A stretch of 53,308 bases of DNA from Prorocentrum cordatum (lineage: Eukaryota). Shown here one piece after another: positions 3,826-50,800 of the stretch (within the stretch, counting starts at the first letter, position 1; every line of letters starts with the position of its first letter). The DNA lies in the NCBI GenBank assembly GCA_963575745.1, contig CAUYUJ010000328.1, positions 62,001 to 115,308 on the forward strand. Reading direction: 5' to 3'. Position numbers and translations under genes: made by a program. Under the pieces are notes generated by a model that was not told where the DNA came from, did not search any database, and saw nothing but the letters and a program-made list of their open reading frames with translations.

Positions 3826-4833
3826 GTCGCAGAGGATTAGAATCGAGGATCGAGGATCAGGATTGAGGCTTTGGGTGCACCTGGATCTGTTTGAGGAGGC
3901 GAGGGCAGGGTGCGAGCGGCTTCTCAGGCGTCGCGCGGGCCCGAGGGGGAGAAGGAGGATCCCAGACCCCCGACGTCGTGACTTTTTGGCAGCGCGGCTC
4001 TCGAGGAGGTCCGAGCCCAGGGACGTGCAACGTCTCGACAAGATCACGACGGAGATTTTTCTCGTCGGCTGCGGCCTCTCGGGGCCCTTGCAGGGCCCTG
4101 GAACTGTCAACAACGACTCGGGGTAATAAGCTGGTCCGGGGGAATAGGTCTGAGTATGAGTAGGTCTGAGTCTGAGTAATTTTGTGTGTGAGTAAGTCTG
4201 GGTAGGAGCAAATCTGAGTGTGAGTCAGTCTGTGTACGAGTAAGTCTGGGAGTGAGGAGGAGAGGGGAGGAGAAGGAGAGGGAGGAGACGTCGGCGGCAT
4301 CCAAGAAATCACGCAAACCCCACCTCAGGATATGGGGCAGAAGCTGGGCCGGGGGAGAGGGTCCCGGAGACCCCGTGCCGAACACGCCGAGGACGCCGCG
4401 TGCCGGGCCGGGGGCGCACGCGGGGCGCTCCCTGGAGGCGGCCCTCTGCCGTCGAGGTCTCCCGGGCGTGGGCAGCTCCGCCTCGGCGCGGGGGGCACGG
4501 CGGAAGCACCGCGGGGGCGCCCCTCTCTCGGCGGAAGCTGGCCCGCGGGCGGCCAGAGGCCCGCACACGTCACTCGGCATCGCGCGGACGGACGTGTGCA
4601 TTGTTTCCTTCGGCGAGGGCCCTCGAGGAGCATCCGTGATCTGATCGTGTGGCGAAGAAGCCACGCACGAGGCCGAACAAAAAGCACCGGGCATGGAGTG
4701 CCCCTCCGAGAGTTAGGCCAACGTGCTTGGAGTGCAGCAGGGCCCGTGCGCGAGCCACGCACGCAGCGCTCCAGAGAGAGGGCCTGTGCCTCCGAGGATG
4801 GAGAGAGAGAGAGAGAGCTGGCATCTCCTCCTC

Positions 4834-27208: not shown

Positions 27209-27494
27209 TCTGATTACTAGAGCTCGTCCTCTAGATCGTTCACGCTGGTGACGACGAGGAGGAGCAAGAGAAAGTATGTGTCGATGTCAATTATCGTGAT
27301 AATTGTCCGTGAACACCTTTTGTCCACAATATGAACGGCCGCGCTGTAGTGTGCGCGGTCTGCCTGGCACGGCCAGGCTCTGTCAGAAAGAGTCCCGCCC
27401 TCCCTCGCCTTGAGCCGAGGGTGGCGGCGAAACGGACAGGGCAGACGGGCAGGAGGCAGCTGCTGCTCAAGCTTACTCCTGCGTAGCATTCAGA
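27209..27494 (-). repeat. 3' LTR (286 bp, TCTGA...TCAGA)
   Basis: No difference seen versus 35056-35341; the ORF track gives identical 90-aa translations for both. Confidence 0.95.
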
Positions 27495-30400: not shown

Positions 30401-33294
30401 AGGTCCCCCGGATTCCAGGTCTGATAGACCCGGTTGCGAGCCTGCTCGGCGCGTCGACGACGCTCAGCATACTCTACTTCCAGGAAGCTTTTGCGCGCGA
30501 GGAGGCGCCTCTGCTCCTGAGTCTCCCCGGTGTCCCCGTCAATGATGGCGAACGGGTTGCTCGAGGCCGGCATCCCAGAGACGCCCATCGCGTGCTCGAA
30601 CGGGGAGTGGTTGCCGACCTTGTCCATGCTGTTGATCGCGCTCACGGCCCAGGACACCAACTCCTCGACCGGGCAGTCGGGGTCCAGCGTTGCCAGCTTC
30701 GTCATCAGTCGCTTGAAAAGCTGGATGCGCCTCTCGACCATGCCCATCAGCCAGTGGGCCTCGCCCGGGGCAATCCACAGCTCGATGCCGCGGTCCGAAC
30801 ACCACCTGGCCACTGCTTGTGAACGATGACATCCTTCGGGGTCCAGACGGAGAAGGCTGGGGCGGCGGTAATGTCCGCACCAGTCATTCCATGTTGAAAT
30901 CACCTCCTGAGTCGATCTGTTGCCATTGCGCTCTCCCTTCTGTCCAAGATAGGTGACACTGGTGAGCCCGGATCCCTCGTCGATGTTCAACGTCATCAGG
31001 AAAGAGTCCTGCTTCGGCGAGAGCCACTCGAGCCCGTCGGAGGCCAGCACCTCTAGGACGCCTGGCAACTCGATGCCCGAGGCGACCCTGACGGCTTTTG
31101 GTAATTGTCCCGCATGGCATGCGTGACACTGGTGGCGAAGAGCTGCTTGTAGGACCTGGAGAGGTGCTCCCGATGCCTTGAGGATCTTGTACAGTGTCTT
31201 GTTGCTCGGGTGGCCGAGGTTGCGGTGGAGCCGCGTCAGCCGTTGCTCGATCTCCAGCTCCTCCTTCTTGGTCGGTGTCTCGGAGATGCCCAGGCCCTTC
31301 ATGACCGACTCGTCGTCCATGGCCTCGGGGTTATCCTGCAAGAGGTCCTCGTCGAGGGCCTCCTCCATCTCCTCTTCAGCGTCCTCTGGGATCTGTTCCA
31401 AGCTGGTGAAGATCTCCTTGCCGTACCTCGCGCTGGTGTTCGTCTTCAGGATATGCTTCGCCCAAGCCTTACACAGTGCTGGTGGGTAAAAGGCCGTCTG
31501 GGCCACCACCTGTCCGTCCTCGATGGGGCGGTGTGTGTGGTTGTCGCCCCTGCCAGGGCGGTTGGAGCACGCCCTGCCGAGCTTAGCGCCGAACTCCGGG
31601 TCTGTCGAGCATATGCGCCATGCCTTCCTCATCAGCAGGCCGGAACGAGCTTCGCGAAGTCCATGCGCACAGCCATGGATGATCGTCTCGTGCATCTGAT
31701 CGCGCATCGCCTTGATCGAGGGCGACCTGGTCCAGCTTCGGCTGGAAGCTGGCTGTTCGAGCTCGGTGTGGCAGTCGTGAATCTTCTTCGAGTCTTCCCA
31801 GAGGCTCTTGCAGTTCCGCTGGATACGTCGGGCCTTGCGCACCTTCGCCAGATACGTGGCCTTCTGCTGATCTGTCTTCTGGTTGAGATTCTGGATCGGG
31901 CAGTCTGCTGTACATGGCGGGCTGAGAACCAAGCGGCGCGGTCGGAGTCGTCGGAGAAGGTGAAGCGCGCGTCGAAGCCCGGTTGCCGTTCCCATGTCGA
32001 TCCCATTGAAGAGGCCGCACCTAAACACTTTGCCTCCCTGGTCCTGCACGGCCTTGCTGAGGCTCGAGTCCTCCGGACAGCACGCCTCCATCAGGTCGAT
32101 GCGGTAGGGCCTGCCGAGCTCCGTCAGGTCCTCGGCGATGGTCTGGTAGATCTCGTCAAGGACCTTGTCGTGGCTCTCGTAGAACATCTTGAGATCCTGG
32201 TCGTCGAGCTGCTTCAGCGTTTCCTCTTCGAGTCCATCTCCGGCAGTTCCGAGTCGTCGAGCATCTCCGGAGTGAACTTCCAGCCCCCCTGTATCTCCGG
32301 GGAGTTCAGCTTGTTGGACAGGCGCCGCCAGCGTAGAGCCACTGCCTGCTCCCGAATGGTCACCTCCGTCGCCTTCGTGCACGTGTGGCTCTTGCCTCCG
32401 CGGCAGCTGCGCCCCCGAATCGTCTTCCCGAGGGTCCCGCAGCAGGAGCACGCGGACTTCGGAGGTCTCGTCACTGGCTGAGCCCCCGCTGGACTCGAGG
32501 GGGCGCTGCTGGCTGTCGCTGCTGATGCCGCTGCTGGTGTCCCGGGTGCTCCCTGCTGTGGGGTCTTGAGGCACTGGTGGCTCTTGCCCCCGAAGCAGCT
32601 GCACCCGCGCTTGGTCTTCCCCAGTGCTCCGCAGCAGCCGCACTTCCCCACTGGGTTGTACCACTTCGCTGGTAGCTCCGGAGTAGCTGGTGTTGCTGTT
32701 GATGTTGGCGTCGGGGTCGCTGCAGCCGAAGTTGTCGATCCCCTCGTGCGAGGGCGGCTCCACTCGGGGCGGGCCGCGGGCACAGGTGGCGGCTGTTGCT
32801 CCGAGGATTGCCCAGCCAAAGAACCGTCGCTGCATGTCATCCAAGCGGCCAGTGGCGGCCTGGGAAGAATATGGAGGTCGTGAAAGACTGCTGGTTGAGG
32901 CTATTGCCGAGTTGATGAACTGAGCCGAAGGTGGCTGCGAACAGCATGATGATGAACACCGATGGTATTGTGCTGGCTCATCGCTTTGCTTTTCCATAAT
33001 TTGATCCTGAGGCTTGCTTGCTAACGGTCCTCTTGACTGTGATGATGTCCCGATCGACGGTGATGATGAAGAGAGCCGGTCGGATGACCTGACCGTCCGT
33101 CCGAACGAAATCGAGGTTTCCGTCGCTCGAGCCGATCCGCTCCGTGTCGCAGTTTCCGTCGCTCTGGTAGGTGTCCGCGCCGCCGAGGTTTCCGTCGCTC
33201 TGGTAGGTGTTTCGAACTCGCGGTGACCGAGTCGGTGTGGCCCCCCCGATGATGAGGTTGACAATCGAGATAAATTCCCTTCTGCTGCCATCAT
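27490..33294 (-). CDS. pol: Copia Pol polyprotein: linker, DNMT-like domain, integrase, reverse transcriptase, RNase H
   Basis: IN HHCC (LHRNLGH...CHAC) and DDE core (ASDG, RLDPEG, MVERR); RT motifs KARLV, GDVTSAFLQ, YGIGEAP, HVDDF; RNase H CDAAW, SSLAAE, TDC, IADGLTK. Confidence 0.95.
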   Translation of the reverse strand: MMAAEGNLSRLSTSSSGGPHRLGHREFETPTRATETSAARTPTRATETATRSGSARATETSISFGRTVRSSDRLSSSSPSIGTSSQSRGPLASKPQDQIMEKQSDEPAQYHRCSSSCCSQPPSAQFINSAIASTSSLSRPPYSSQAATGRLDDMQRRFFGWAILGATAATCARGPPRVEPPSHEGIDNFGCSDPDANINSNTSYSGATSEVVQPSGEVRLLRSTGEDQARVQLLRGQEPPVPQDPTAGSTRDTSSGISSDSQQRPLESSGGSASDETSEVRVLLLRDPREDDSGAQLPRRQEPHVHEGDGGDHSGAGSGSTLAAPVQQAELPGDTGGLEVHSGDARRLGTAGDGLEEETLKQLDDQDLKMFYESHDKVLDEIYQTIAEDLTELGRPYRIDLMEACCPEDSSLSKAVQDQGGKVFRCGLFNGIDMGTATGLRRALHLLRRLRPRRLVLSPPCTADCPIQNLNQKTDQQKATYLAKVRKARRIQRNCKSLWEDSKKIHDCHTELEQPASSRSWTRSPSIKAMRDQMHETIIHGCAHGLREARSGLLMRKAWRICSTDPEFGAKLGRACSNRPGRGDNHTHRPIEDGQVVAQTAFYPPALCKAWAKHILKTNTSARYGKEIFTSLEQIPEDAEEEMEEALDEDLLQDNPEAMDDESVMKGLGISETPTKKEELEIEQRLTRLHRNLGHPSNKTLYKILKASGAPLQVLQAALRHQCHACHAGQLPKAVRVASGIELPGVLEVLASDGLEWLSPKQDSFLMTLNIDEGSGLTSVTYLGQKGERNGNRSTQEVISTWNDWCGHYRRPSLLRLDPEGCHRSQAVARWCSDRGIELWIAPGEAHWLMGMVERRIQLFKRLMTKLATLDPDCPVEELVSWAVSAINSMDKVGNHSPFEHAMGVSGMPASSNPFAIIDGDTGETQEQRRLLARKSFLEVEYAERRRRAEQARNRVYQTWNPGDLVYFWRKGKGLDPRPGKKGGWYGPARVLAQEKRHVDGRTRPTSVIWISHGSVLIRCAPEQLRVASEAEKMIVELQRQSNLGKTMTEILETAKGGTYEDLLGQNPPDLREYEPPPQPTMAIPATEGQTLENNSEAGLPSGADNDTPGDPDSSRPPTPSSATQPEVEPSEPDVRRSRSPPARAADRSAAPSRTPGKASTSAAVRTESRTASRPPPATSTSWAAGAASRGESRPRWRMTHRGPELDLHVPPEKRQRGADEEMADALFDSNHLVNLFKDKLDITLGIDEQQTVYFEYLQDENTTPDGRRGLMSHILDSFVVNQRRKDKVELTWSKMNATEREEFEAAIAKETNNWIQHQGLRAVPISRVKDAADVIRARWLFTRKSDGKAKARLVLLGYQTKDLGQEPTASPTASRRARHVMLTVAAANRWKLIKGDVTSAFLQAHDLDKDLFIEPDAVLRKAFHVQEGDILQVVKPGYGIGEAPRHWWETVKHDFAKLRLQACELEPCLWKARCSRTGRLIGMIMAHVDDFIMAGDTSHPEWQDMVKQIRGLYKWGTWEDMNDGLTSLEQCGVTIEESEQGFFLHQKSYIDKIKEVKAASGSKHRTTDSLKDSDKTVLRAFCGEIYWLGVNTMPFLLSWVADLQMKIPAGTHNLFTAANNIVKLVKQSRHMGIRIYRHALDDLAIFTWCDAAWASRPDGHSQGGHITAISSKAAMDGKLSEFTVLDWGSKKLRRVARSSLAAEVQEAGDAEGEQSMVRLVLAELLHHMSPLQDTAAALRRLPAILVTDCKAFYDGVVRSQSAGLGLEERRTAIEALALRNALDEGQTVARWVHSHAQIADGLTKASWQAFGVVRAFLEKQQWRLIYDEQFMSARKRAALGKGIFDETDPTDPASARQVLEERRLARQAQPPASMEGNPSGSTTSTGFSASESLIMIQKLQQEIGTHQKFVQQHTRSAEIACAHGTGQNLFPPV
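31443..32103 (-). other. C5 cytosine methyltransferase-like domain within Pol
   Basis: In order: IDLMEACC (diverged motif I), LVLSPPCT (catalytic PC, motif IV), ELEQP (motif VI-like), GCAHGL...RKAWR (VIII-like), YPPALCKA (X-like). Confidence 0.7.
32214..32840 (-). CDS. Overlapping +1-frame ORF encoding two Cys/His (zinc-finger-like) repeats
   Basis: CGCCGALGKTKRGCSCFGGKSHQC and CSCCGTLGKTIRGRSCRGGKSHTC; GC3-rich codons in this frame; frame open from 32900. Confidence 0.65.
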   Translation of the reverse strand: MTCSDGSLAGQSSEQQPPPVPAARPEWSRPRTRGSTTSAAATPTPTSTATPATPELPAKWYNPVGKCGCCGALGKTKRGCSCFGGKSHQCLKTPQQGAPGTPAAASAATASSAPSSPAGAQPVTRPPKSACSCCGTLGKTIRGRSCRGGKSHTCTKATEVTIREQAVALRWRRLSNKLNSPEIQGGWKFTPEMLDDSELPEMDSKRKR

Positions 33295-33312
33295 CAGGGG
33301 GCGCTGTCCCTA
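33242..33312 (-). promoter_or_regulatory. Putative stop-codon readthrough signal: UAG, 8-nt spacer, 13-bp stem-loop
   Basis: TAG GGACAGCG then CCCCCTGATGATG (33301-33289) pairing with CATCATCGGGGGG (33254-33242); gag-PR and pol are in the same frame. Confidence 0.6.
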
Positions 33313-34998
33313 GCGTACCGCAGGGCAGCAGCTGCACGGAGCGGCCTCTTCGGGCAGCTCCTCCACCAGAACATCGGGCGCCGTCGCTTCGGACGTCAGG
33401 CACCCGGCACTCGGCAAGGAAAGCGGCACCTCCTTCCACCACTGCGGCGTCGTCAGGTTGACGGCCAGATGGTTGCTCGAGAGGCGCTCGCAGTAGAACG
33501 CCTTGTTGCCCATGGTCGGAAGGCCGATCCAGTTCCGGCCGCAGTCGACCACAACCTTCAGCGAGTCAGTCAGAATGTCCATGCCCAGGAGGATCGGCAC
33601 GCGGTTCGGCATCACCGACAGCTTGACCTCGGTCAGGTCGCCGCCGAGGAACACGTTCCCCTTCACCGTGCCCATCGAGCTCTTCTGGAGGCCGTCGCCG
33701 AAGGTGAAGGAGCACTCGTCATGTGTCGTCTCGAACTCCTGGCCGTGCTGGTCCAGCATCTCGTACATGAGGTTCTCGACGCTCTCGAGGCCGCCGAGGC
33801 TCTTCGTGGCCCCGATGTCGAGGATCGCCCAGATGCCGTCGCGCTCCAGGAGGTAGAGGTACTCGTCGAGGGCGGACAGGACGAAGCCGTTGTGAGTAGT
33901 CCCACGAGCTCCATCTCTCGTATTATCTTTCTTGAACCTCTCGTTGCAGTCCGCCGCTCGATGACCATATTCGCCGCACGCCATGCACTTCATCTTGGAC
34001 ATGTCACGTCCCTTGCCCGTGTCGAAGCGGGCGCGGCCTCGACCGTTCTTGCCACGGCCACGCTGGAAGCCTCGTCCCGTGTTCGGAGGCGGGGGCACGC
34101 GATCGGGGTCCTTGAGCGACACGACCGGGTAGTAGTCGCGGGACACGCGAAGGCGTCGGATCAGGTCGCGAGCGTCCTTGAAGCTCCTGCCCACCTGCTT
34201 GAACTCTGCGAACACCTCGTTGTCCGCTGGGTTGTCGTCAGCTGGCTCCTCATATTCGTCTTCTTCAGCGAGGGTGATCAGCTGCTCGACAACCTCTGTG
34301 AAATCAATATCTTCCCCACCAGTCTCGTCCTCAACGTCGTCGACGGGCGTGTCCTCATAGAAGGCCCTCCGGTGCTGCTTGCCGTCGAGCTCCGCCAGCG
34401 CCTCCGCCGGGAAGCGCGTGAGCAAGGCCTTGTATGTCTTACCAAAGTTGAGGTCGCCACCTGCAGTGGCGGTGATCTCTCCACGTTGAACAGGGGATAG
34501 CTTGGACTTCCGGAGGAACCACCATGTCCGAAGAGGCTTCGCAATCACTTCCGTCACGCTGGAATCGATGACTTGGAGCTGCATCAACAGCTCGCGCTCC
34601 TTCTTCTCGAATCTGGCGGCCCAGTCCTGGAAGGTCTCGCCCGAGTTCCTGCTGACCTTCAGGAAGAACTCCTCCGCGAGGAGGCCCGTGTCATTCAGGC
34701 TGGTGAAGTCCAGCTTCTCCAAGACGTACTGAAACACTTTGTTCCAACCAATCAAAACTCCATCCTTGTCGATCTCGTCGACCGTGTCGATGTCCGGGCA
34801 GCTCTCCACCGTCGTCCGGACTCGCGCCCCAAGGGCGCGCACCAGCTGCGGGCCACACACGTAGCGCTCCGCAGTCTTGATGCTCTTGGTGAACATGGAG
34901 ACCTCAAACTTGTAGCTCATCGACTTGTCTGCCTCGCCGTTCCATGAGGGGACGTCGACGCGCGTCGTCGGTGGCCCGCTGGCGGCTGTAGTCGCCAT
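33310..34998 (-). CDS. gag: Gag plus aspartic protease
   Basis: VPSWNG N-terminal motif, CCHC knuckle CMACGEYGHRAADC, protease AILDIGAT and PILLGMD. Confidence 0.93.
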   Translation of the reverse strand: MATTAASGPPTTRVDVPSWNGEADKSMSYKFEVSMFTKSIKTAERYVCGPQLVRALGARVRTTVESCPDIDTVDEIDKDGVLIGWNKVFQYVLEKLDFTSLNDTGLLAEEFFLKVSRNSGETFQDWAARFEKKERELLMQLQVIDSSVTEVIAKPLRTWWFLRKSKLSPVQRGEITATAGGDLNFGKTYKALLTRFPAEALAELDGKQHRRAFYEDTPVDDVEDETGGEDIDFTEVVEQLITLAEEDEYEEPADDNPADNEVFAEFKQVGRSFKDARDLIRRLRVSRDYYPVVSLKDPDRVPPPPNTGRGFQRGRGKNGRGRARFDTGKGRDMSKMKCMACGEYGHRAADCNERFKKDNTRDGARGTTHNGFVLSALDEYLYLLERDGIWAILDIGATKSLGGLESVENLMYEMLDQHGQEFETTHDECSFTFGDGLQKSSMGTVKGNVFLGGDLTEVKLSVMPNRVPILLGMDILTDSLKVVVDCGRNWIGLPTMGNKAFYCERLSSNHLAVNLTTPQWWKEVPLSLPSAGCLTSEATAPDVLVEELPEEAAPCSCCPAVR

Positions 34999-38188: not shown

Positions 38189-40395
38189 TCACCTGTACTT
38201 GTATTTCTGCTTAAGTGCCTTGACCATCTGGGCCCGCGCCTTGCGGATTCCGTCGACGTGGGTGCGGTAGAAGTGTGAGTCTGGAAGGGTCTTCTTTCCC
38301 CGGCGCTTGCGCCTCTTAGTGAGCAGCCGACGGTGTTCGCATATGCCGTATTCCACGAGATCGTAGCTCAGGAGACTGGCGAGGTCGACCTTGCACAAAT
38401 GGCTCGCCACTTTCCGCCGCGCCTCCCCGTGGAGGTCCCGCCCTGCAATTTCCAATCGTTGCCGCGTGGTTGTCCCGGGTTGCCCCGCCGGTGTCCCGCG
38501 GTGGCCCTGCGGCCGTCCTGTTGCTGACCCGTGGTGGCCCGCGGCGCCTCGGAAGGGCATCGGCCACCTGAATAACGAAACTGCTAATGGCGAGCACCCG
38601 AAACATGACTTCACAAGCGACCACAGCCTGCGCGTGCTGAGCAGCAGGCACGGAAGCTTTGACGGCCATGGCGTTCAGCTCCTGGTCGAACTTGGAGCCC
38701 TTACGAGGCCGTTTGGCTGCGCTCTCACGAGGCGCCTCGTCGTCGGTGGCCTCGTCGTCGGCGTCTTGGGCCTGCTCCACGTCGGCCGCCCCCGCCGCTG
38801 CAAGGCCCGCGGGCTGATGCTTCGCCAGCGCCGCAAGCGCCAGCGGCACCATCCCTGGCCCAGCGCAGGACGGCGTGACGCGCGGTCGTGGGACACGTGA
38901 GAAGTACGAGGCGTGGAACCGATCCAATATCATTTTGATCTGGTACGCATGGAACGATGATCCGCGAAGCAAGTAGATTGACTACGCGAGCCCCGCCTGG
39001 GGCGCACGGGCATGCAGTTCCAGTGTTCCGAGCCGCGCCCTCGGCTAAAAGCAAACAAAACCTCCTCGGCATCCTCGACTCATCGGCATTCGCTCTCCAC
39101 CTCCTCCCCCTCCTCATCCTCCTCTTCGTTAAGCAAACAAATTCTCCTTATCCACATATGCATCCTCCGACGCACGCGCGTCTGCGTTCATTTATTCACA
39201 CATATAAATTGTTTTTTTTTATATAGTGTTATTTATCGTTCAGTGTTTATGTATAATTATATATGAATATATGAATATATATATATATATATATATATTC
39301 ATATATATATACATATATACAGATACTATATGCTAGATATGATATATACTGTACTAGAAGCACCGTGGGAATATCTAAATACGCACAACACCTTGCAAGC
39401 TTTTTAGTCGCATCGCGGCAGAAACTCCCCGCACGCGCGTCCGAGCCCCGCTGGGCCCACCTCGCACGCACAACACCTTGCAAGCTTTCTAGTCGCATCG
39501 CGGCAGAAACTCCCCGCGCGCGCGTCCGAGCCACGCTGGGGCCACCTCGCCTGGCAACGCATGGACATCAAGGAACCCATGCGAAACCAGATGGTAAACC
39601 ATCACAAACTTGGCATATGAAGGAACGCCTGAGTCCCGCGGCTGCGACGGAAGTCAGTGGATCAAAATTCAATACGACGTCGTAAAAGGACGATACTGAA
39701 TGACGTTCCAAGCCCCGCACTATGCCCCCTGCGTACACGCCCAGACGGGCAGCCACCGTGTTCTTGACGCTCGTTTTCGACACTTTGACTGGCGGGCACA
39801 GGTAACCAGTCCTTGGGTTCTTACCGAGCGTGTAGGAAGCCTGCTCCATAGCTTTCTGGAGCCGTTCTTCTTGAGAGCCCTCACTGACCATGTTGCTTAA
39901 TATCCGTGGGATCGATTCAAGTTGAGATGCGCGCGTGTCATTAAAGCGCAGACCCGCATATTTCTGTAAAGTGAGCTCGAAGTGCGTGGATTCGTTCAGC
40001 ACGCGCCTGGCAATTCCAGCACCCAAAGCCACGGCGCAAACATCTTGAGTACGGATCACAGGTTGGAGACACACGTCCATGGCCGATAACTCAAAGGGGA
40101 GGGTGTTCCACTTGAGATCGTCCCACCATGTGTCACAACCAGCACGCTGAGCTGTGATCGGTAAGAAGTCGTTGCAAAACTGTTGCAGTGTGATGTCAAC
40201 TCTGGATGTGGGGATCTTCCGACGTGCAAGCCCGAATGCGCTTCTGATGAAAGATCGGGGCAACACAGACTGGCCATGAAGGCCTGCGATTGTCGCCACC
40301 AGCTTCATCACTATCATCGTCATGATCTCATAACCAAGCTCATTAATCTGGTCCCCTGGTGTTACACGATGCTCCTCGTAGAATAAAGAAGACAT
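38189..40395 (-). CDS. Multi-exon gene resembling the 5-hmdU DNA kinase helical domain (aG/PT-pyrophosphorylase clade 1); possibly disrupted
   Basis: Exons about 40395-39629, 39550-39477, ~38981-38568, ~38422-38189; ordered motifs TSRVD..LQ, LNESTHFEL, TGYLCPP, FHAYQI, AGPG, YDLVEYGICEHRR; exon 2/3 junction phase unresolved. Confidence 0.55.
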
Positions 40396-42429
40396 CGCGT
40401 GCTGTGCACAAGTGGCCCGTCGACAAGGTGGCGAAGCCAAAACTGAGAGGGCTAACACGAGCACCTCGGGGAGTCTGAACCACAATGGTTGGCGGAAGAA
40501 CGAAGCAGGAATGAGAAATCAAGGAGGAGGATGACAAGGATAATGAGGATGAGGATGGGGAGGAGGATGGGACGGAGAAGGGAAGATGAGGAGGATTAGG
40601 ATGATGAAACGCACGAGGGAGATAAGGATGATAATGAAGGGGGTGATGATGAGGAGGAGGAGGACACGGAAGAGGGATGATGAGGATCATGTGGATGGGG
40701 AGGAGGATGAAACGGAGGAGGGAAGATAAGGACGATGATGATGAGGATGATGATGAAACGGGGCAGGGAAGATGAGCATGATGAGGGCGACGGGGAGTAT
40801 GATACGGAGGGGGGAAGATGATGATGATGAGGAGGAGGATGAGGATGGGGAGGATGAACCGGTGGAGGGAAGATGAGGATGATGGGGGTAATGATGGAGG
40901 AGATTGAAACGGAGGAGGGAAGATGGGGATATTGAGGGTGAGGGGGAGAAGGAAAAGGAAAATGGAACGGGATGATGAGGATGGGGATGAGGAGGATGAA
41001 GCGGAGGAGGGAAGATGAGGAGGATGAGGAGGAGGTTGAAACGGAGGGGAGAAGATAAGGACGATGAGGATGAGGATGGGGAGGGGGAGGAGGAGGAGGA
41101 GGGTGAGGGGGAGGATGGGGGTACTGAGGGTACTGATGACGCGGGAACGCGAGAGGCTAGCCAATGCTATCCTCCTCATTCCTATCCACCGAAAGGTTCT
41201 CCCGACGGCGTTGGTCATTCTCCCAAGCAACAGGCGCCTCGGAGGTAGCGACACCGTCCAATTTAGCAATCTGTTGGGGTGACAAAGTCGGAAGCTCAGC
41301 GATTGCTGAAGTGAGCTGAGGAACCTACAGGGCCGCAGCAGGAGCCTCTACAGCAACGCTGATAGGACCCATATCCCCACTAGAACCCCTCCCAACAGGC
41401 TCATTGCCAAGCCGAAGACCCCAAACAGCCTTCGTCTCACCCGTCCGCCGAAACGGAGTGCCCACAGTGGCCTCGACGATGGAGTGGTCTCTGAACACCC
41501 ACGGGGCCTCAGAAACCTGGAAGAAATCCCTGGGGACAGGATGAGGTGGTTGCGGGGCAGGAGGCGGAGGCGGAACGAAGGGGGGCCCGAAACCCCCACG
41601 GTGCTGGGACCCCGCTCGAACGGTTGCACCCCTGCTTGCTCGCATGCCTCCACAAGGACCTATGCATCGCCGAATTGAATATACCAGAAGGGGGGTGAGG
41701 GAGAAGTAGAAGAGGGATGGGAGGAGAAGGCGTAGGGGGAGGAAGAAACGGAGGACGACGACAAGTAAGAGGAGGGAGAGCGACGATCGACAACAAACGC
41801 CCCGATACCCCTTCATCCTAGCCCCCAAACACATGGCATGGCGGCGGGATGGGTAAAGCTGCCAAGGACACAGGGAGCGTGCAAAATATGCCCGGGATCG
41901 AGAAACATCCGTAGACGGGATGCTTCCAAAAGTTTGGAGCTGACCACATGGAGGGCGCAACGGACAGATCTCATTGACGACTCATGGAAATCACCCAGAA
42001 ATCGAGGCACCCTTTTGTTCAATCACGCTGCCATGTATAAGCGCCCCCGTGCATGATGTAGTGTTTTTTACGTATGGAAGTGACAGAACAAGCATTGCAA
42101 ACACTTCAACATGTTTCTAGATTTTTGTCATGCCGATGTCCTTGCTTTCCCCTGCAAAAAACACGGTATTCGGCGCGCGACCGATTCTATGTGGCAGCGT
42201 GATTGAACAAATCGGCTCCCTAGTTCTCGTTGTTTTTCTTGACAATATGGTGCATTCTGCTTGCGGCCTGGCCTTCTGGTGTCTCTGGGGGGGGGGCTGT
42301 GTGAGCTCATCACTATGTCAACATTAATAGATGCATGCATGCTTAACCGTACGCAATTGTGTAACATGTTTACGTATATATGTAAACAGTATCATGCATA
42401 CATACATGACTTTATATATGATATATGAC

Positions 42430-42465
<36 letters not shown>

Positions 42466-42765
42466 CATACATACACATACATGAATATACGTGCATACAC
42501 AACTAAAATATATAAATATATACACATACGAACACAGATGTCGGCTCTTTGTAAATATACACATGTACGCATGCACACACATGTGGCCATACACACACGG
42601 TCACAAGTATGCATACACACGCCATCATTCGCTGGCCCACGTCTGCGACAAGGGTAGGGCAACGCAACGTGATGCACCACGCGCGGACGCATGGATGTGG
42701 AGTGGATTTTTCGGCGCCTCAATGACCGCTCCCCCGCGGCTGCCCACTGCAATAGACTATAGTGT

Positions 42766-44814
42766 CTACGTGCGCCTCTTCTTCGTTGAGAGGTCGAAGA
42801 CCGACATCCGCTCCCCTGCGCCAGCAGTAGCCTTGATGTGCTGGTACACTGCCGCCTGCTGCGAGGACGGCCCCTGGCGGCGCCGCGCGGGCACTGGCGG
42901 CGCCGCCTCGCATGCAATGCAAGTCTGCGGGGCGGCCAAGTGGGCGCCCCACTCGGTGCCCCCGAAAATTGTCGCGGACATTGCCGTGAATGGGCGCATG
43001 TCCGCATGCCGCGCTCGCACCGTCGTGCGGGTCGATAAGGCGCGCTGCGCCATGGCCAGCTCAGCAGCGCCCCACGTGCTCAGCTCGGCGGCGAACACTC
43101 TCTCGCTGACAGTGATCACATTGTGGAAGCACGCCTTCAAGCACGAATGCACCTGCTCGTTGCGCGTGGTGCCCGTGCCGAGCAGCGCGTTTTCGCTGGG
43201 AGTCAGCCGCGCCCTGTAGCGCAAATTGTTGAACAGCCACTCGCAGCGGTTCGGCTGGCAAGCCGCGATGAACTGCTCCCGCAGCGTCGTCTTGCTGTAC
43301 CTCGCGTCGAGGCGCTCTGGGTATACGACGACGAGCGCCGCGAGGAGCCCGCAGAACTCAGCCCGCGTCTTCATGGGGCGGCTCGGGTCCATCTCCTTCA
43401 GCGTCTTAGTGGCCCTTGCTAGACTGATGTCCCCGTCCACGATGTGCTGGACGCGCGTGCGCTCGGCGGCCGTCTGCTGCGGCGGGTTGGTGCCGTCGAA
43501 CATGACCTCATGCCGCCTGGTCGTGTCCCGCACCGAGAACTTGCCCATGATGGCCCTGAGCACCAGGCCGACAACGGTGGGGCGGACCTTCATGCGTCTG
43601 GCCAAGTGCCGATCGGCCGCGAAGGCTAAGTGCATCGGGTCCAAGCTGATGCCGATCACATTCGGGAACATCCCACGCATCTCAAGCAAGACTTTCTGGT
43701 TGGTCACGTCCAGCGCCACGTGCTCGACCTTGCTCCTGTAGGCCATTGGGACTGCCTGATCGGCAGCGCCGCCGAACGAATCCGGCCTCTCCGCGTATGA
43801 CGGCGTCAGCGCCAAGACCTCCCCGTGAAACCCGAGCACTGTGATCACGTTGTGCTTATCCAAGCTACTGCGCCCAACCACTTTGAATGCGATTTTGTAC
43901 GTGGCGTCGAGCGACAGCGACCGGAAGCCGCCCAGCGGCGCGAGGCTCGACTTCAGCTGGCCGACGAAGTTCTTCATCGCGAGAGACTCCATCACGTCAC
44001 ACGCAAGCGCCGTCATAGTCGACGAGTGTCGGTTGGCCAGCTGCGTGACCTGGCAACCTTTCTCCAGCCACGCTGAGGAGAGTGCTCGAAAAGCCACGTG
44101 GTATACGCCGCCTGCGTCCAGCAGCTTCCTCGCGCACGCGTTCGCGAACCCCTGCGTGTAGCAATGGTTCTCCAGGCGCCTGCAATCCTCCAACCGCGGG
44201 TCGCCGAGTGCCCAGAATGCGGGGCCGTCGGCAGTGAACACGAGCGACACGTTGACGTCGCGGTTGCCCATGACGGTGTAGATCGACGCCCGCGCACCGC
44301 GCTGCGCGGAAAAGCCGACCCATTCGCAAATCATCTTCTTCGCCCGAGAAGCGTAGTTACCGAGCGCGGATCCACCCGTCAGCACGTCGTGGTCGTGCAA
44401 GGCGCGGATGATGGCCGCGATCTTGGGATGCGTCACCCACGTCTCGTCGTCCTCCATCGTTGCGGACAGGCACAACTTCCCAGACACGTGGAGCCTCGCG
44501 TGGTCACGCGCGCACCTCCTGCGAGTGACCGCTAGGCCGCAGAATGGGCACTCCAATCCGTCCTCGCCCTCCCCCACATCACCGTCTGTGAGCTTGCGAA
44601 GCCACTCCGTCGCCTCCTCCTTCATGAGCGCGACGATGTCTCCGTGCCTGGCCTTCTTCACGCTCACCTTCCTCATGGGCGGCATCTTGGTCGCCCGCGC
44701 GGCCGCGCCAGCGGGCTTCCTGGCGGCGTTCTTGCCGGCTGGTTTCTTGACCGCGCAGCGCGCCCGCGTCGCAGGCGCGGCTGCTGGCCGCCGCGCAGCG
44801 CGCTGGAGCCCCAT
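42766..44814 (-). CDS. MULE/Mutator-superfamily DDE transposase with an N-terminal C2H2-like finger
   Basis: SLDATYK (D1), VALD (D2), LDPMH (C/DxxH), TTRNEQVHSCLK (E); CPFC...H...H; basic KKPA/RKPA N-terminus; start chosen at ATG 44814 (frame open to 45111). Confidence 0.8.
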   Translation of the reverse strand: MGLQRAARRPAAAPATRARCAVKKPAGKNAARKPAGAAARATKMPPMRKVSVKKARHGDIVALMKEEATEWLRKLTDGDVGEGEDGLECPFCGLAVTRRRCARDHARLHVSGKLCLSATMEDDETWVTHPKIAAIIRALHDHDVLTGGSALGNYASRAKKMICEWVGFSAQRGARASIYTVMGNRDVNVSLVFTADGPAFWALGDPRLEDCRRLENHCYTQGFANACARKLLDAGGVYHVAFRALSSAWLEKGCQVTQLANRHSSTMTALACDVMESLAMKNFVGQLKSSLAPLGGFRSLSLDATYKIAFKVVGRSSLDKHNVITVLGFHGEVLALTPSYAERPDSFGGAADQAVPMAYRSKVEHVALDVTNQKVLLEMRGMFPNVIGISLDPMHLAFAADRHLARRMKVRPTVVGLVLRAIMGKFSVRDTTRRHEVMFDGTNPPQQTAAERTRVQHIVDGDISLARATKTLKEMDPSRPMKTRAEFCGLLAALVVVYPERLDARYSKTTLREQFIAACQPNRCEWLFNNLRYRARLTPSENALLGTGTTRNEQVHSCLKACFHNVITVSERVFAAELSTWGAAELAMAQRALSTRTTVRARHADMRPFTAMSATIFGGTEWGAHLAAPQTCIACEAAPPVPARRRQGPSSQQAAVYQHIKATAGAGERMSVFDLSTKKRRT

Positions 44815-45266
44815 GGCTCGGCGCGAGGGCGCGCGGGGGCGGGTGGGCGTCGCTTGTGCGCGAGCGAGCCTCGAGCCCAAATATGGCCGCGGGAAGGGGG
44901 CGCGCGCGGCAGTCCGCCGAGCCTCGAGGGCGGCGACATCGGCCCATGCATGCAATGTCGCCATCCCGAACAGACTATCGGGGCTCGCAGACGGGGCAAA
45001 GACAGGCGGGCGAAGATTTTCCGCCTGCTCTCCGCTGGGGCCGACTCTCCCCGAGCCCGACAACCCCGCGGCGACTACCCAGTGCATCCGACCGTCGCGC
45101 TCACAAGCCAACCAATGGCCACTGCCCTAGTCTAGTGTCATCAACTCACCCCGACACCCTGGCCTCGCCCGAGCCCGCGGGCGCCCCCGCGCCCCTCACG
45201 GCTCCGCCTACACGGGGAGGTCGGCCGCCCGCTCCCCCGACCACTCTGTTCGGCGCCCTTGCCCGA

Positions 45267-47791
45267 TCAGCTGCTACCGCGGCCGCGACCACGGCCACGC
45301 CTGCGAGAGCCCCTCGGGTCAAGGCCGCTCTTGCTGATCTTCTCGGACAACACCTCCGCCTCCATGTTCGCAAACTTGCGCAGCGTCTCGCGGTAGTCCT
45401 GGCTCGGCTCCTCCACGAGATAGACCTCGAGGGCGTCTTCCCCGTCATCCCACTTGCCCAGCACGCTCGGGCATGACCTTGCGATCTCGCGGAGCACTGC
45501 GACGCCGATCTTGGGGATCTGCCTCTCCCTCTGCTCCTTGCCGGTGAACAAACCGAACACTTGGTGCGTCTTCGTCCTGTATGGCGATGTTCCCTCTTCC
45601 CCTGTTTTGACGGCCTTCAGGAGCATGCGGCGCGCGATCTCTGTCGTCTTCACGTTTGCGACCGCGGTGATGCCGTCGACGTCCTTGTCGCCAGCCCTGA
45701 ACACCGCGTCTTCGAGGTCGGCCGCCTGCAGCTCCGTTGGGGGAACCACGGGGTCCAGGATGCTCATGTCCTCCCTGAAGGCGTCGCGAATGCCTCGGGG
45801 GTGCCGAATGAGCCACTGGCAGGAAATGCCAAAGCTTTTTGCGCCATTCTGGGGCCACTTGGGCCCCGTCGGGCCCCACAGGGGGGCGCCCTGGACGCCG
45901 CGGGCCCCCCTGGTGCTCCTCTGCCCCCCTCCCCCCCCGCTGGCCAGCGGCACTTTCTGCAACGCCCGAATGCCGTCCAGGATGCCAGACAGCCTGAAGG
46001 CCCGTTCGAAGTGTTCGTCCTCGATGACCCACGGGAGCTCGCGGTACACCTGCGGGACTTGCCCCCGCATCACGTCCGCGAGGAAAAGGCCCGAGGCGAG
46101 CATGCCTAACTTCCAAGGCCCGATCCCGTGCTCCGCACCCTTGTCGGCATCGTTCTCATCGCGGGCCTTCTTGACGAGCATGTTGTAATAAGTGGAGTAG
46201 CTCAAGAAGGCGCCGCGGGCTTTGTCCGAGAGCTCCAGGGCGCAGCGCGGGCCCTTCTGAGAGCAGTGTTCAACGAGGACCTCCGCCCGCTTGCCGAGGT
46301 TGAGGCGGTCTGGAATTTCGATGTCCCGCTTCGGGAGGTTCCACTGCGGAACGTAGACGCCCTGCTCGTACTTCATGCGCACGGGCACGTCGACGCCGTC
46401 GGGGAGAGTGTGCGTCACTCCGTGGACAGACGGGACGTACTCGGGAATGTCCACCTCCTCGCCCTCGTCCTCGTCCTCGCCCTCGTCGTCGGGCATGAAG
46501 TGCGACCTGAACGCCGTCGCGCTGATGAGCGCCTTCCCGCAGCCGATGGACCCCCAGATGGTCTTGGGCACTGGCACCCAGTTGCTCCGAGAAGGCAAGC
46601 CCTCGATCTCCTCGTACTGCTCGCGCGGCTGCACGGGGAGGCCCGTGCAGACGAGGAGCCGCGCCTTTGCCTGACACCCGTGATCCCCACGATCGCCCCT
46701 CAACATCTCGATCGCTGGGGTTGGATGAAAGTTCCCGAGAATGGTTGTCGAGACTGGGAGGCAATCACGTCCGCCGTGGGCACCATTGCTCTTTGTCTCG
46801 TGATCGCTCTTCCCGCACTGGGCCAGGCGGTTAAACCACCCAGCCAGTGGGGTTTGTCCCGAGCCTGGCCCCTCGGACGCCTTTTTCTCGTTGGGCTTAT
46901 CGAGAATGCTCAAGTCCTGGAGGAATTGATACACTTCGTCGTAGACCAACGCCTGTCCGAACCAAATGCGCCCCTGCATCCCAGGGGAAGTGGCCAGTGC
47001 CTTCTCGGCCTCGTCAAGGTCGCTGAGCTCGCGGTTGACCCACTCGGGCGACAGGGCGGGGAGCTTCTGGACGATCTTCGTCTGGCGGACGAGGCTGTAG
47101 TCACCTGCGCAGCGTTCCCGCGCGCGCTCGATCGTCCCGCCCAGGAATGCGAGGGACCAGATGCCAGGAAATGAAGGATAGGATGGCTCGGTCGGCTCAT
47201 CTGCGGCGCCCTGGGCAGGCAGGGTGTCGGCGTCATGCACGGCCGCGCCATCGCCGCCAGCCCTCCGCTTCTTGGCTTTCTCGAGGTCCTTCAGGAAGAC
47301 CGCCTTGGCCTCGAACACCAGCCGGTTGCGCTTCATGCGTTGCTTGTCGGCGTACCCGATGCAGTCCTCGGCCAAGTTCGCGAGGCGGCTCTTCCGGCTC
47401 TGCGAGTGGTTCACGTTGAGCAGGACCAGGCACAAGGGGTCTGGCGTGCCCCAGAGGTCCACCTTCCGACTAGCCACGACTGGGGGAGCTGCGCGCCCCA
47501 CCCCTCTCTGGGAGGGCCCAACGCGTCGGCGATCTCTCGAAAGGGGCGGCGAAGGATCGCGGCTCCCCCAGTTTTGGCCAGCGTGACCTGGGCCCCGTTG
47601 CTCAATGCTGGAATGATGCCCAAGGAGTACATGAAGATCGGGAACGCGGGGTGGCTGCTCTTGACCGAGTTGTAGTGGGCCGCTTCGTACCCAGTATTCC
47701 CCGCGATGAACCTGCCATGTTCCTCCCACTGCGCCTGCACATAGTGCCCGACCTTGCGCATGAGGTCGCAGTGCAACTTGGAAGCCGCCAT
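45267..47791 (-). CDS. DUF3987-like P-loop NTPase (helicase-like), 3 exons
   Basis: Exons 47791-47588, 47462-45974, 45793-45267; LVLLNVNHSQSRKS (Walker A-like), LVYDE (Walker B), ILGNFHP, KARLL; GT-AG intron of 125 nt restores the frame; GC-AG intron of 180 nt. Confidence 0.65.
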
Positions 47792-48239
47792 GGCAGCGAG
47801 AGGGGCGCGCGGGGCAATCGGGGGCCCGACCGCGAAGGCAGCGGTGCAGGCTCGGGCCAGCGCTATTGCAGCCGCGGGTGGCAGCGGCAACGACGGGAGC
47901 GCGAATGCAGCGGTCGGACGATGCTGGCGGCAATTCCATGGGCTGGGGGGGCCGAGAGCCGCTGACGAACTTTCCGACGTGCTGGCGGGAACAATCCAAT
48001 GGACACTCAAAACCCAGGGCGGCCTCGACGCGGCCCCTCATGGCGCGGCCTAGCGCCTCACCCATCCGAACAGCGTCGACACGCGCACCTGGCGAACAGG
48101 GCGCGGCTTGCCTGATCGATCGCGAACTGGCTCGCCCGACCCTCCGACGATCGGAAGGCCCCGTAGAGATCCGATCAGCCCGCCGTCCGATCAGCGACGC
48201 CCGCCAGATACTGGCAAGGCCGACGATTGCACCTCGATT

Positions 48240-48518
48240 CGGCTCGCCTCGGGGCCCTACCATCTGGCGCCACGGCTCGTCCTGCACGGGGGTTCCGTCG
48301 GCGTCCACGATGCGGAGCGGCGAGCGCGCCGCCTCGTCCATGGCCGCGCTCAGGCGGTGCTTGAGGTCCTTCATAGTCTCCAACCACGGGATGGAGACGG
48401 GGCCCGCCAGCTGGATGCCGCTGGCGGCGTCCGTGGCCACAACCACTGCGTGGTCGTCCCAATGGTCGAAGAGGCTGATGGACACGCGGCGCACCCTCCG
48501 GCCGAATAGCGTCGACAT
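48240..48518 (-). CDS. Small ubiquitin-like (beta-grasp?) domain, copy 2; end uncertain
   Basis: GPVSIPWLETMKDLKHRL...RIVDADGTPVQDEPWRQ; paralogous to 48604-48942. Confidence 0.4.
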
Positions 48519-48603
48519 GTGGACCTAGCGGGCATTTTTTGGGGGTGGCAACTGCAAACGGCATGGTTGAGGAGACCCGCCCGCGATCGGGAAGATCGGC
48601 CGA

Positions 48604-48942
48604 TCAGCCTGCGGCAGAGATGTGGCAGACCAGCGGCGCCCGCACATTGTTGAGCGCACGGCCTGGCGCAAGCCGATTCGGGCTGTCTGAGAGCCCGGCG
48701 TTTTGGCGCCACGGCACGTCCTGCACGGGCGCACCGTCGACGTCCACGATGCGGATCGCCGAGCGTGTCGCTGGACTCATGGATGCCTGCAGCCGAATCT
48801 TTAACTCTTTGACGGTGTCGCTCCACAGGATGGCCACGGGACCACCCGCCTGGTCCCCGGTGTTCACGTTAGTGGCTGCAACGAGCGCGTAGTCGTGCAG
48901 GGAGTCGACAAGGCGCACGGAAGCCATGCAAGGCACCGCCAT
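48604..48942 (-). CDS. Small ubiquitin-like (beta-grasp?) domain, copy 1
   Basis: GPVAILWSDTVKELKIRL...RIVDVDGAPVQDVPWRQ; conservative amino-acid changes versus copy 2. Confidence 0.4.
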   Translation of the reverse strand: MAVPCMASVRLVDSLHDYALVAATNVNTGDQAGGPVAILWSDTVKELKIRLQASMSPATRSAIRIVDVDGAPVQDVPWRQNAGLSDSPNRLAPGRALNNVRAPLVCHISAAG

Positions 48943-49619
48943 TCCCAGACGGAGGGTCCGTGAGCAGCTGGGCGGGGATATCGTAAATGTCTGCTGGGCT
49001 GACGCTCAGCTACTTGAGCCAACCGCGAGCAGCTGGATACAGGGGTGGTTGTGGATCTCTGCCGTCGGCAGCGCATGCATACCACACGTCTAAGCATAAC
49101 GGGTACATGCTTGCACAGTGATGTATGCAACTTATTAACCACCAAATAAACTTATGCACAAACAGAACGAAACACGCATGAAATACTCATATGTGTCGTA
49201 ACCGCTGTGTCCGAACACGTTGCGCTATGGAAGAGGCAGGGGGCACAACGCGTTAACAACATTTGAAATAACGAAAAATGAAGGCGCCGTTTTGTTCAAT
49301 CACGCTGCCAGGTAAGAGCTGCAGCGTGCAGAATGTATTGTTTTTTGCATATGAAAACGCCCAAAACAGCCGAACAACAACTTATGTTGTTTTGTGTTTG
49401 TTTGTCGTGCTGTTTTGCTTACTTTTTCATGCAAAAAACAATGTATTCTGCACGGACCAGACTCCATGTGGCAGCGTGATTGAACAAAATGACGCCTGAT
49501 ATTATTGTAGATTTTTGTGATAAGCTCACATGTGCTATGCACGCGGCGACGTCCATGCGGCAGCGCGGCTGGACGACGCCATCACATCTCACTGTTAACA
49601 CCGCCTTCTCACTACAAGG

Positions 49620-50240
49620 GATCTGGAACACCAGGGATCAGGTAACACAGAAACAAACAATTATTCGTTGTTCTTAAATCTGCTATTTTGCCTGGTCCCT
49701 GGGCCCTGGGAGAGACGTCCGGGCCCAGGATATGGAAAACCAGGGATCAGGCAAACAGCAAACTTCTTAGAAATTTGAAACATGTTTATAAATCTGCTAT
49801 TTTGCCTGGGCCCTGGGTCCTCGGATCGCAACTTGGGCCCAGGATCTGGGAAATCAGGGATCAGGCAAAATAGCAAAATTTTGAAAATTTTTAAAATTTT
49901 TAAAAATCTTGCTATTTTGCCTGGGCCCTGGGCCCTCGGATCGCAACTTGGGCCCAGGATCTGGGACACCAGGGATCAGGCAAAATAGCAACATTTTTAA
50001 ACATTTTCATTTTTTTTTTAAAAAAAAAAAATGCTATTTTGCCTGGGCCCTGGGCCAGCGGATCGCAACTTGGGCCTAGGATCTGGGAAATCAGGGATCA
50101 GGCAAAATAGCACAACTTTTAATTTTTTTTTTTTTTTAAAAAAACATTTTAAAAAAAATTGCTATTTTGCCTGGGCCCTGGGCCCTCGGATCGCAACTTG
50201 GGCCCAGGATCTGGGAAATCAGGGATCAGGCAAAATAGCA
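49620..50240. repeat. ~115-128-bp tandem array: ~80-bp GC-rich unit with 14-bp terminal inverted repeat plus A/T-run spacers
   Basis: TGCTATTTTGCCTG...CAGGCAAAATAGCA at about 49681, 49795, 49910, 50032, 50160. Confidence 0.9.
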
Positions 50241-50800
50241 AGATTTTTAAATTTTCAAATTTTTTTAAAAAATTCTGCCTCCCCCCTCAATTTTTTTTTT
50301 AAAAAAAGAAAATCCCCGCCTTCTCAGAATGGTTGCTATTTCTGTTCATCCTGGGAGTCTACAATCCAATACGTTGAACGTCATTCGGGGGCGTCGCAAA
50401 GCCGAAGCATAAGCAGCAGGAAAACAGAAGCTGGGGACTCGCCGCTTGGGGGTGCATCCGAAGGGGGCGGGGGGGGTGGCTGGGAAGTGATGCTGGTCGG
50501 CCGTACTGGGGGGGGGAGACAGAAACCCAGGACATGTGGAGAAATAATCCTGGGGAATCCTTTTATTTCTGTGCGTCTTTCTCTGCGTGTCCTGGGGCCC
50601 CCTTTCCTTCTCGTCGCCCCTGCTGCCCCCGCTCTTGCGGCAGGGAGGCTCGGGCCGCCGGCGCTCCACGGCGGCTCCCGCCTCTCCGGCCCACGCCCCG
50701 CGGGCGCGCGGGGCGTGGGCGGGGCGCGGTTCGTATGGGGCCTTGGCCTCTCACGCCCTTCTAGTCTTACCTTGATTTGAACGTATTTTTTAAGCTTTGG

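Follow-up and report, generated by a model that had tools for sequence, protein, structure and literature searches.

The stretch of DNA considered here, referred to as the window, is a 53,308-nucleotide (nt) piece of the genome of the dinoflagellate Prorocentrum cordatum (GenBank assembly GCA_963575745.1, contig CAUYUJ010000328.1, positions 62,001 to 115,308 of the forward strand), and all coordinates given below without further qualification are those of the window. The region from ~41984 to 49522, possibly from 41903 to 49597, is best explained as a two-gene DNA transposon, in which a helicase-like gene is followed by the gene of a DDE transposase and which is bounded by a pair of palindromic units; we put the probability of this reading at about 0.65. 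In other words, the conserved coding module appears to consist of a phage-type superfamily 6 (SF6; DUF3987/MCM-like) AAA+ gene and then a Mutator/IS256-like DDE gene on the same strand, with one or two small open reading frames (ORFs) upstream.

The candidate element contains four coding units, all on the minus strand, which in order from right to left are small ORF a, ORF b, the three-exon helicase-like gene and the single-exon transposase gene, and both of the large genes are intact in the window copy. An earlier reading of the same letters, here called the original prediction, had described two small ORFs, a spliced P-loop gene and a 682-residue DDE ORF in a common orientation, and all of these were found. 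It had further proposed a possibly undescribed DDE element that couples transposition to an ATPase or helicase, a reading which is strengthened by what follows, the helicase family being found also with a second transposase superfamily.

The transposase

The transposase gene occupies 42766–44814 of the minus strand as one exon, running from an ATG at 44814 to a stop codon at 42766–42768, and encodes 682 residues in an uninterrupted frame, as originally predicted; the open frame from stop to stop is 42766–45126. Residue numbers used here are those of a 688-residue query starting at 44832. Among 38 aligned members of the family there is no variation at D309, D375 or H401 and next to none at N558, E559 and H562. 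Past the second D comes a D-x-x-H motif, in the local sequence SLDPMH; a motif of the form (C/D)xxH in this position is characteristic of the Mutator superfamily.

An AlphaFold model of the protein (predicted local distance difference test, pLDDT, 88.7; predicted template modelling score, pTM, 0.85) would place D309 within a strand (305–311) and D375 just past another (371–374), both strands being part of a mixed sheet, with a predicted all-helical insert of about 150 residues (~401–555) and with E559 in a helix at 556–568. The best solved structure for this model is that of the IS256-family transposase ISCth4 (Foldseek E 1.7e-3, probability 1.00; VIA-align Z 13.5, root-mean-square deviation, rmsd, 4.4 over 278 aligned residues), below which VIA-align places retroviral integrase cores (Z ~10 over 138–145 residues), the hAT transposase Hermes (Z 9.4 over 245) and piggyBac (Z 8.3). 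It is because ISCth4 is the closest fold and the D-D-E residues are conserved that the protein is called Mutator/IS256-like here; by its modelled fold and its motifs it is a DDE transposase of this kind, lying outside the Pfam family of Mutator-like elements (MULEs).

The family to which it belongs is a large one, with 549 representatives at E ≤ 0.001, 244 of them at ≤ 1e-10, and its members have a conserved C-terminal helix behind a variable linker. When the family profile is searched against PDB sequences only C2H2 fingers match (best E 0.0013), and a C2H2-like zinc finger at the N-terminus is weakly suggested by the sequence.

The helicase-like gene and its product

The helicase-like gene, also on the minus strand, comprises three exons. 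Exon 1 (47588–47791) begins with an ATG at 47791 and is marked out by a tblastn match to residues 1–71 of P0190, a public P. cordatum gene model, and by positions 1–71 of the hidden Markov model (HMM) profile of the family. Removal of intron 1 (47463–47587, 125 nt, GT-AG) restores the family consensus SNGAxVxLWG at the junction, and P0190 is spliced at the same place. Exon 2 (45974–47462) encodes the AAA+ core, with a P-loop NVNHSQSRKS, a Walker B motif LVYDE, a sensor 1 GNFHP and the stretch RGDHGCQAKAR, and exon 3 (45267–45793, including the stop codon at 45267–45269) encodes the C-terminal part. Between the last two lies intron 2 (45794–45973, 180 nt, GC-AG), which is in frame and free of stop codons; its position corresponds to a 60-residue insertion relative to 14 members of the family, and an exact 8-nt direct repeat at a spacing of 180 flanks it, as if it were an insertion of the introner type. 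In P0190 intron 2 is read through as coding sequence. The spliced product is 739 residues long, has no internal stop and covers positions 1–716 of the 722-position family profile in one stretch, in keeping with the spliced P-loop gene of the original prediction.

The family of this protein comprises 29 relatives of ~700–780 residues. In the numbering of one member, P0004, K92 and S93 are nearly invariant and D255, E256 and N324 invariant, as several arginine residues are or nearly are. The AAA+ motifs are near-invariant, namely a P-loop ending in R-K-S, a Walker B of the form hhhhDE, a G-N sensor 1 and the RGDHGCQAKAR stretch, and hardly any variation is seen from Walker B to sensor 1.

Searches by fold were made with a model of P0004 (pLDDT 77.8), a member of the family other than the window protein. 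For residues ~31–590 of this model, the best 11 of the 50 matches listed among solved structures (VIA-align) are MCM-type AAA+ proteins at Z 13.9–16.4, headed by 3f8t (Z 16.4, rmsd 3.8, 251 residues aligned); RavA, BrxL, the SCCmec helicase Cch, ComM and BchI come next (Z 9.5–11.1), TnsC reaches Z 5.4, and neither MuB nor IstB is among the 50. Foldseek with the same model gave weak matches in the PDB (best E 0.06, an MCM), and 22 matches at E ≤ 0.001 (best 1.1e-8) among the predicted viral structures of BFVD, where those bearing names are phage DUF3987 proteins, helicases and primase-helicases. In the ESM Atlas, which counts as one source, DUF3987 is carried by 22 of the 30 feature neighbours and by all 10 structure neighbours listed. 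Searches by sequence gave no Pfam match for the 739-residue protein, nothing below E 0.4 when the family profile was compared with PDB sequences, and no relative in viral contigs, where none of 39 pattern matches was confirmed.

DUF3987 has been described as an SF6 helicase family that is a distant relative of MCM, has a winged helix at its C-terminus and is usually encoded beside a primase (PMC4889955), and one PriCT-DUF3987 protein as a 5'-3' helicase (PMC11724360). That MCM proteins are the best matches among solved structures while the neighbours carry DUF3987 fits the first of these descriptions. By its modelled fold and its superfamily, rather than by HMM, the 739-residue protein is DUF3987-like. 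Its C-terminal part, encoded by exon 3, is possibly a winged helix, a suggestion whose sole basis is the beta-alpha-alpha-alpha-beta-beta order at residues 646–698 of the model.

Recurrence of the gene pair

Whether the two genes are linked at other loci was a point on which the original prediction hung, and they are: two P. cordatum gene models and a contig from a metagenome hold both, ordered as in the window and sharing a strand. The first model, P0190 (1462 residues, annotated as a 'C2H2-type domain-containing protein'), fuses the two genes and is 96.5% identical to the window in its helicase part and 94% in its transposase part; it is either another copy of the pair or this very locus as present in a related genome. 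The second, P0108 (1019 residues), joins an unrelated Helicase_C (SNF2-like) part to a decayed helicase-like C-terminus, followed by transposase fragments. In the metagenome contig, L005, a helicase gene at 3–2615 and a transposase gene at 3341–4759 lie on the same strand and are 58% and 35% identical, respectively, to those of the window.

Helicase relatives were present at 11 metagenome loci, five of which extend at least 1.5 kb downstream of the gene, the other six being too short to tell. All five informative loci have a DDE-type ORF downstream of the helicase gene, which is Mutator-like in L005 and IS1595-like in L001, L004, L006 and L007; the sister element in L006 (1–7519) recurs as the same sequence in L007 (99.92% over 7,496 bp), such that the five loci amount to four distinct ones. 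The transposase ORF of L006 matches the NCBIfam IS1595 model NF033547 at E 1.2e-7, below the curated cut-off, and its Atlas neighbours carry PF12762 (IS1595), while the ORFs of L001 and L004 have no NCBIfam IS1595 match of their own and are tied to that of L006 by tblastn only. L004 and L006 share a third ORF of 228–255 residues after the transposase ORF. Inverted repeats of at least 640 bp enclose L006 and reach the start of the contig, each holding a perfect 38-nt GC-rich hairpin; in L004, the contig of which begins only 584 bp upstream of the gene, no terminal inverted repeat (TIR) was seen.

In a tree of the helicase family (31 rows, 203 core columns) the IS1595-linked L001 falls inside a clade (support 100/99) with all three Mutator-linked rows, and L004 and L006 fall in another (98/94). 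The backbone of the tree is not resolved, and the transposase partner may have changed once or several times. As judged from these sequences, the same helicase family accompanies two transposase superfamilies, the one Mutator/IS256-like and the other IS1595/Merlin-like.

The terminal palindromic units

Each flank of the candidate element is a complete palindrome of ~260 bp in which a 20-nt core occurs twice, perfectly kept and in opposite orientations. The left unit spans 41984–42245 (core region 42014–42211; repeat families D6, D7, I3, I6 and I8), with its 20-nt cores at 42014–42033 on the plus strand and 42192–42211 on the minus strand, and the right unit spans 49260–49522 (core region 49291–49488; repeat families D6, D7, I1, I3 and I8), with its cores at 49291–49310 (plus) and 49469–49488 (minus). 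Exact matches to the 20-nt core number four in the 53-kb window, all of them at the two flanks, where none is expected from 100 shuffles. The two units are alike in both registers because each is a foldback, being 72–78% alike as direct repeats (spacing 7277) and 74–76% alike as inverted repeats, with the inverted match extending over ~230–260 bp. The cores are identical at 20 of 20 positions, whereas the remainder of the units is only 72–78% alike. As single strands both fold into hairpins, the left at -39.6 kcal/mol (z -4.1) and the right at -73.7 kcal/mol (z -13.5). The units lie ~520 bp and ~320 bp away from the outermost ORFs, and a repeat scan of the window found no other inverted repeat that brackets the genes.

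Outside the units there is a weak inverted similarity between 41903–41983 and 49523–49597 (the local alignment scores 30, where shuffles give 18.4 +/- 3.6 and 5 in 500 of them do as well). No direct similarity was found in this outer zone, where 224 of 500 shuffles reach the score, nor was any similarity found on the inner side of the units (416 of 500). The outer zone at 41903–41983 may be a degenerate outer part of a TIR. The degenerate inverted termini of the original prediction are therefore real as inverted repeats, but each flank differs from that description in being a palindrome in its entirety; similarly, the ends that it proposed, 41935 and 49565, fall inside the zone of weak outer similarity, but exact ends are not fixed.

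Weighing of the evidence

Several results tell against the account given above. The window transposase has no match in Pfam (E ≤ 10) or in NCBIfam, and PF10551 and PF00872 match none of 86 further members of its family (0/38 and 0/48), such that the Mutator-type DDE transposase of the original prediction is upheld by the triad conserved in 38 relatives and by ISCth4 as the best fold, but not by the established family models. Much the same applies to its DUF3987 helicase-like gene, for which the BFVD matches, the Atlas neighbours and the MCM fold speak, but not PF13148, which matches none of 15 members of the helicase family at E ≤ 1 while matching all four reference proteins in a control (YfjI at 1.1e-107). 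Alignment of the family to YfjI with hhalign gave a non-significant E of 0.42, and to four verified DUF3987 proteins (YfjI and three from phages) an E of 0.099 with a very shallow reference alignment; only the P-loop region was aligned, T/S-R-K-S facing E-R-K-S. Glycines normally found in a P-loop are missing from this one, so the protein need not be an active ATPase, and no primase-like domain was found by Pfam in any ORF of the element.

The ends carry difficulties of their own. The 8–11-bp target-site duplication (TSD) that had been expected did not materialise, since no direct repeat of 8–11 nt adjoins any candidate end, the ends themselves not being fixed, and the 20-nt core was not found in 15 other loci or in viral contigs. 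Moreover, each unit is a self-contained palindrome resembling a miniature inverted-repeat transposable element (MITE), and the ends are hence not proven to belong to the gene pair. As to movement, those eukaryotic MULEs that have been tested are reported to move by cut-and-paste (PMC5499845), so that a replicative route would depart from known behaviour.

Possible mechanism and the role of the ATPase

If the two genes do form a transposon, then its transposase would bind the 20-nt cores through the zinc finger and the helical N-terminal part, and would cut and join DNA with its DDE site. The helicase-like ATPase would form a ring and act on the DNA of the element, most plausibly at the hairpin-forming ends, where by unwinding DNA it might drive transposition-coupled replication, either as copy-out/paste-in or as replication of an excised copy. 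Such a role in replication is favoured because the fold and the only characterised relatives are those of replicative helicases, and because IS256-type elements use copy-out/paste-in. Nevertheless, even when the two-gene transposon is granted, we hold the replicative role only tentatively, its chances being somewhat short of even.

The alternative that survives best retains the same transposon but sees in the AAA+ protein an ATP-dependent regulator, of the MuB, TnsC or IstB type, which, once bound to target DNA, would recruit or activate the transposase. Mu, Tn7 and IS21 all place an AAA+ gene beside that of their DDE transposase, and the conserved C-terminal helix of the transposase, set behind a variable linker, is the type of tail that contacts the ATPase in these systems. 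Furthermore, one AAA+ family serving two unrelated transposase superfamilies fits a generic DNA-bound platform, and the P-loop is atypical. Set against these points is the nearly invariant segment between Walker B and sensor 1, which in MCM holds a DNA-contacting hairpin, as well as a fold in the MCM/DUF3987 clade (Z 16.4), with TnsC a much weaker match to the model at Z 5.4 and MuB and IstB not among the 50 matches listed; the closest characterised relatives, too, are replicative helicases (PMC4889955, PMC11724360). Within a two-gene transposon a regulator would be the less expected role, though a serious contender, with the remainder left to other roles; taken as an explanation of the whole region, it is unlikely. 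It is likewise doubtful, although a shade less so, whether the replicative reading can be widened to a class of dinoflagellate DDE transposons built on at least two unrelated transposase superfamilies, in which a phage-type SF6 replicative helicase would have been acquired as an exchangeable module, the hairpin-forming palindromes of the ends would be loading or origin sites, and movement would be coupled to replication, by copy-out/paste-in or by episomal replication of an excised copy.

A further possibility concerns the ends, in that the flanking units could be independent MITEs of one family, and the gene pair a fragment, an element with decayed or distant ends, or a segment that two MITEs could carry along as a composite. 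Each unit is after all a complete palindrome, equipped with perfect inverted cores and folding as a hairpin; inside, the two are only 72–78% alike, as members of separate MITE subfamilies would be; the search for a TSD around the whole gave none; and the P. cordatum genome is described as rich in non-autonomous inverted-repeat elements (PMC10666404). The bases that adjoin the cores (GGCRCC) are themselves palindromic and common to all four arms, and TSDs belonging to the single units would as a result be indistinguishable. Yet the unit family occurs nowhere else in the window, and on a rough estimate the chance that two random placements would bracket the genes so closely is ~1e-4. In addition, the similarity outside the units, weak as it is, is inverted and not direct, no other inverted repeat brackets the genes, and L006, which has a helicase of the same family, also has a palindrome within each of its long TIRs. 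Independent MITEs are accordingly a distinctly unlikely explanation of the flanks.

Less probable by far is that the gene pair descends from a transposon but is no longer mobile, having been domesticated or otherwise retained by the host. The intact frames of both genes, their spliceosomal introns and the public gene models for the pair would agree with this, as would the fact that no TSD or polymorphism has been shown. Against it stand several diverged copies in one species, including the decayed P0108 that is fused to an unrelated gene model, separate relatives at 53–57% identity, the very large size of the transposase family and the retention of both catalytic residues and terminal cores.

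Chance adjacency of the two genes was rejected, as the pair recurs at diverged loci.

The small open reading frames

Upstream of the helicase-like gene lie ORF a (48607–48942, minus strand, 112 residues) and its paralogue ORF b (48180–48518, minus strand), which are 45% identical to each other. ORF b starts the open frame 48524–45270 and has no stop of its own before the helicase reading frame. Relatives of ORF a were found at 99% identity (112 residues) and 84% identity (107 residues); the latter and a 93%-identical helicase fragment are both on contigs of 3072 bp, and there are hints from this that ORF a travels with the helicase gene. The original prediction had regarded the two ORFs as ubiquitin-like. 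Two paralogous ORFs are indeed present, but none of four small-ORF sequences matches a ubiquitin family in Pfam, one of them matching CIDE-N at E 0.18, and there is no match below E 0.5 among PDB sequences.

Entries labelled as the green alga Pyramimonas sp. in EukProt include P0193, which is 99% identical to ORF a, and P0191, which is in the 90%-identity cluster of P0003, itself 94% identical to the helicase gene of the window. These entries could be cross-contamination of that data set, and they hint that the ORFs are transcribed.

Relation to known mobile elements

With MULEs and IS256 the element shares a DDE core of RNase-H-like fold into which an all-helical domain is inserted, the D-x-x-H motif that comes after its second D, TIRs that are a few hundred bp long and, with weak support here, an N-terminal zinc finger. 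It differs from them in matching neither PF10551 nor PF00872, in the lack of a visible 8–11-bp TSD and in a D-to-E spacing of 184 residues, the spacing of MuDR or IS256 being shorter. The accessory gene also sets it apart, as the known accessory genes of MULEs are mudrB-, VANC- or Ulp1-like, whereas here the gene encodes an SF6 helicase-like ATPase.

Likeness to the DUF3987 and MCM helicases lies in the MCM-type AAA+ core, the P-loop ending in R-K-S (ERKS in verified DUF3987 proteins), carriage on mobile elements and a C-terminal winged helix, which in the present case is suggested by the model. In contrast to these helicases, the gene has a eukaryotic host and introns, has no primase fused or adjacent to it, and is partnered by a DDE transposase instead of an integrase or replicase. 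From MCM itself the helicase-like protein differs in lacking the N-terminal OB-fold domain, the match covering the AAA+ part only (residues ~31–590).

Mu (MuA/MuB), Tn7 (TnsB/TnsC) and IS21 (IstA/IstB) likewise keep the genes of a DDE transposase and of an AAA+ ATPase together on the same strand, between inverted repeats. The AAA+ clade (TnsC at Z 5.4), the lineage of the transposase and the eukaryotic host are nonetheless different, and the likeness to these systems is one of gene layout.

As for Merlin/IS1595, transposons of this group have been reported from Symbiodinium without ends or accessory genes, in a paper whose accessible text does not contain the word 'helicase' (PMC8101967). L001, L004 and L006/L007 are similar to them in carrying an IS1595-like transposase ORF and differ in adding a helicase-like gene, a third ORF in L004 and L006, and TIRs of at least 640 bp in L006.

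A literature search over main texts returned no description of a eukaryotic DDE transposon that carries a gene of the MCM or DUF3987 type, and among the papers listed for DUF3987 none, by its title, concerns a eukaryotic genome. In the accessible part of a review on accessory genes in eukaryotic transposons, helicases come up for Helitrons and Teratorn and, beyond these, just in a remark about giant viruses (PMC6431247). The pairing of a DDE transposase with a phage-type helicase thus seems to be undescribed in eukaryotes.

Sequence context

The G+C content is 0.63–0.68 across 43–49 kb, and the flanks at 42–43 kb and 49–50 kb are richer in AT. This, together with the GT-AG and GC-AG borders of the introns in the window genes, is consistent with published features of the P. 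cordatum genome, for which 59.7% G+C, non-canonical donor sites and many introner elements are described (PMC10666404). The best named relatives of the proteins of the window are likewise from P. cordatum. A lookup of public sequencing runs listed one DNA run with 0.59 of the words searched for and no RNA run.

Between the left terminal unit and the stop codon of the transposase gene is an AT/CA-rich microsatellite block (42330–42640), and to the right of the element, at 49600–50270, is an array of five to six copies of a 114–128-bp unit, which also pair as inverted copies. To the left, purine-rich low-complexity repeats of the GAGGAGG type (40343–41800) give rise to open frames on both strands that are up to 334 residues long and rich in Pro, Ser and His, and that are probably not genes. 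Further away, at 27490–34998 on the minus strand, lies a Ty1/copia-type retroelement, with RVT_2 (E 5e-17) in an ORF of 1939 residues and a CCHC zinc knuckle in an upstream ORF of 562 residues.

Implications

At the level of annotation, the helicase family is unannotated in public gene sets, where the element is predicted as a fused 'C2H2-type domain-containing protein', and the transposase family, for all its 549 representatives, stands without a Pfam model. More generally, we know of no eukaryotic cut-and-paste DDE transposon that encodes an AAA+ motor. In bacteria MuB, TnsC and IstB decide where and when an element inserts, and helicases of the phage-type DUF3987/MCM-like kind replicate mobile DNA. 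The occurrence of one helicase gene family with two transposase superfamilies points to a step in transposition that needs the unwinding of DNA, or else to replication driven by the element. In this regard, the element offers a testable handle on DNA transposons in genomes that are without ordinary nucleosomal chromatin. If true, a replication-coupled route would be the first for DDE transposons in eukaryotes, and it may be one driver of the huge, repeat-rich genomes of dinoflagellates.

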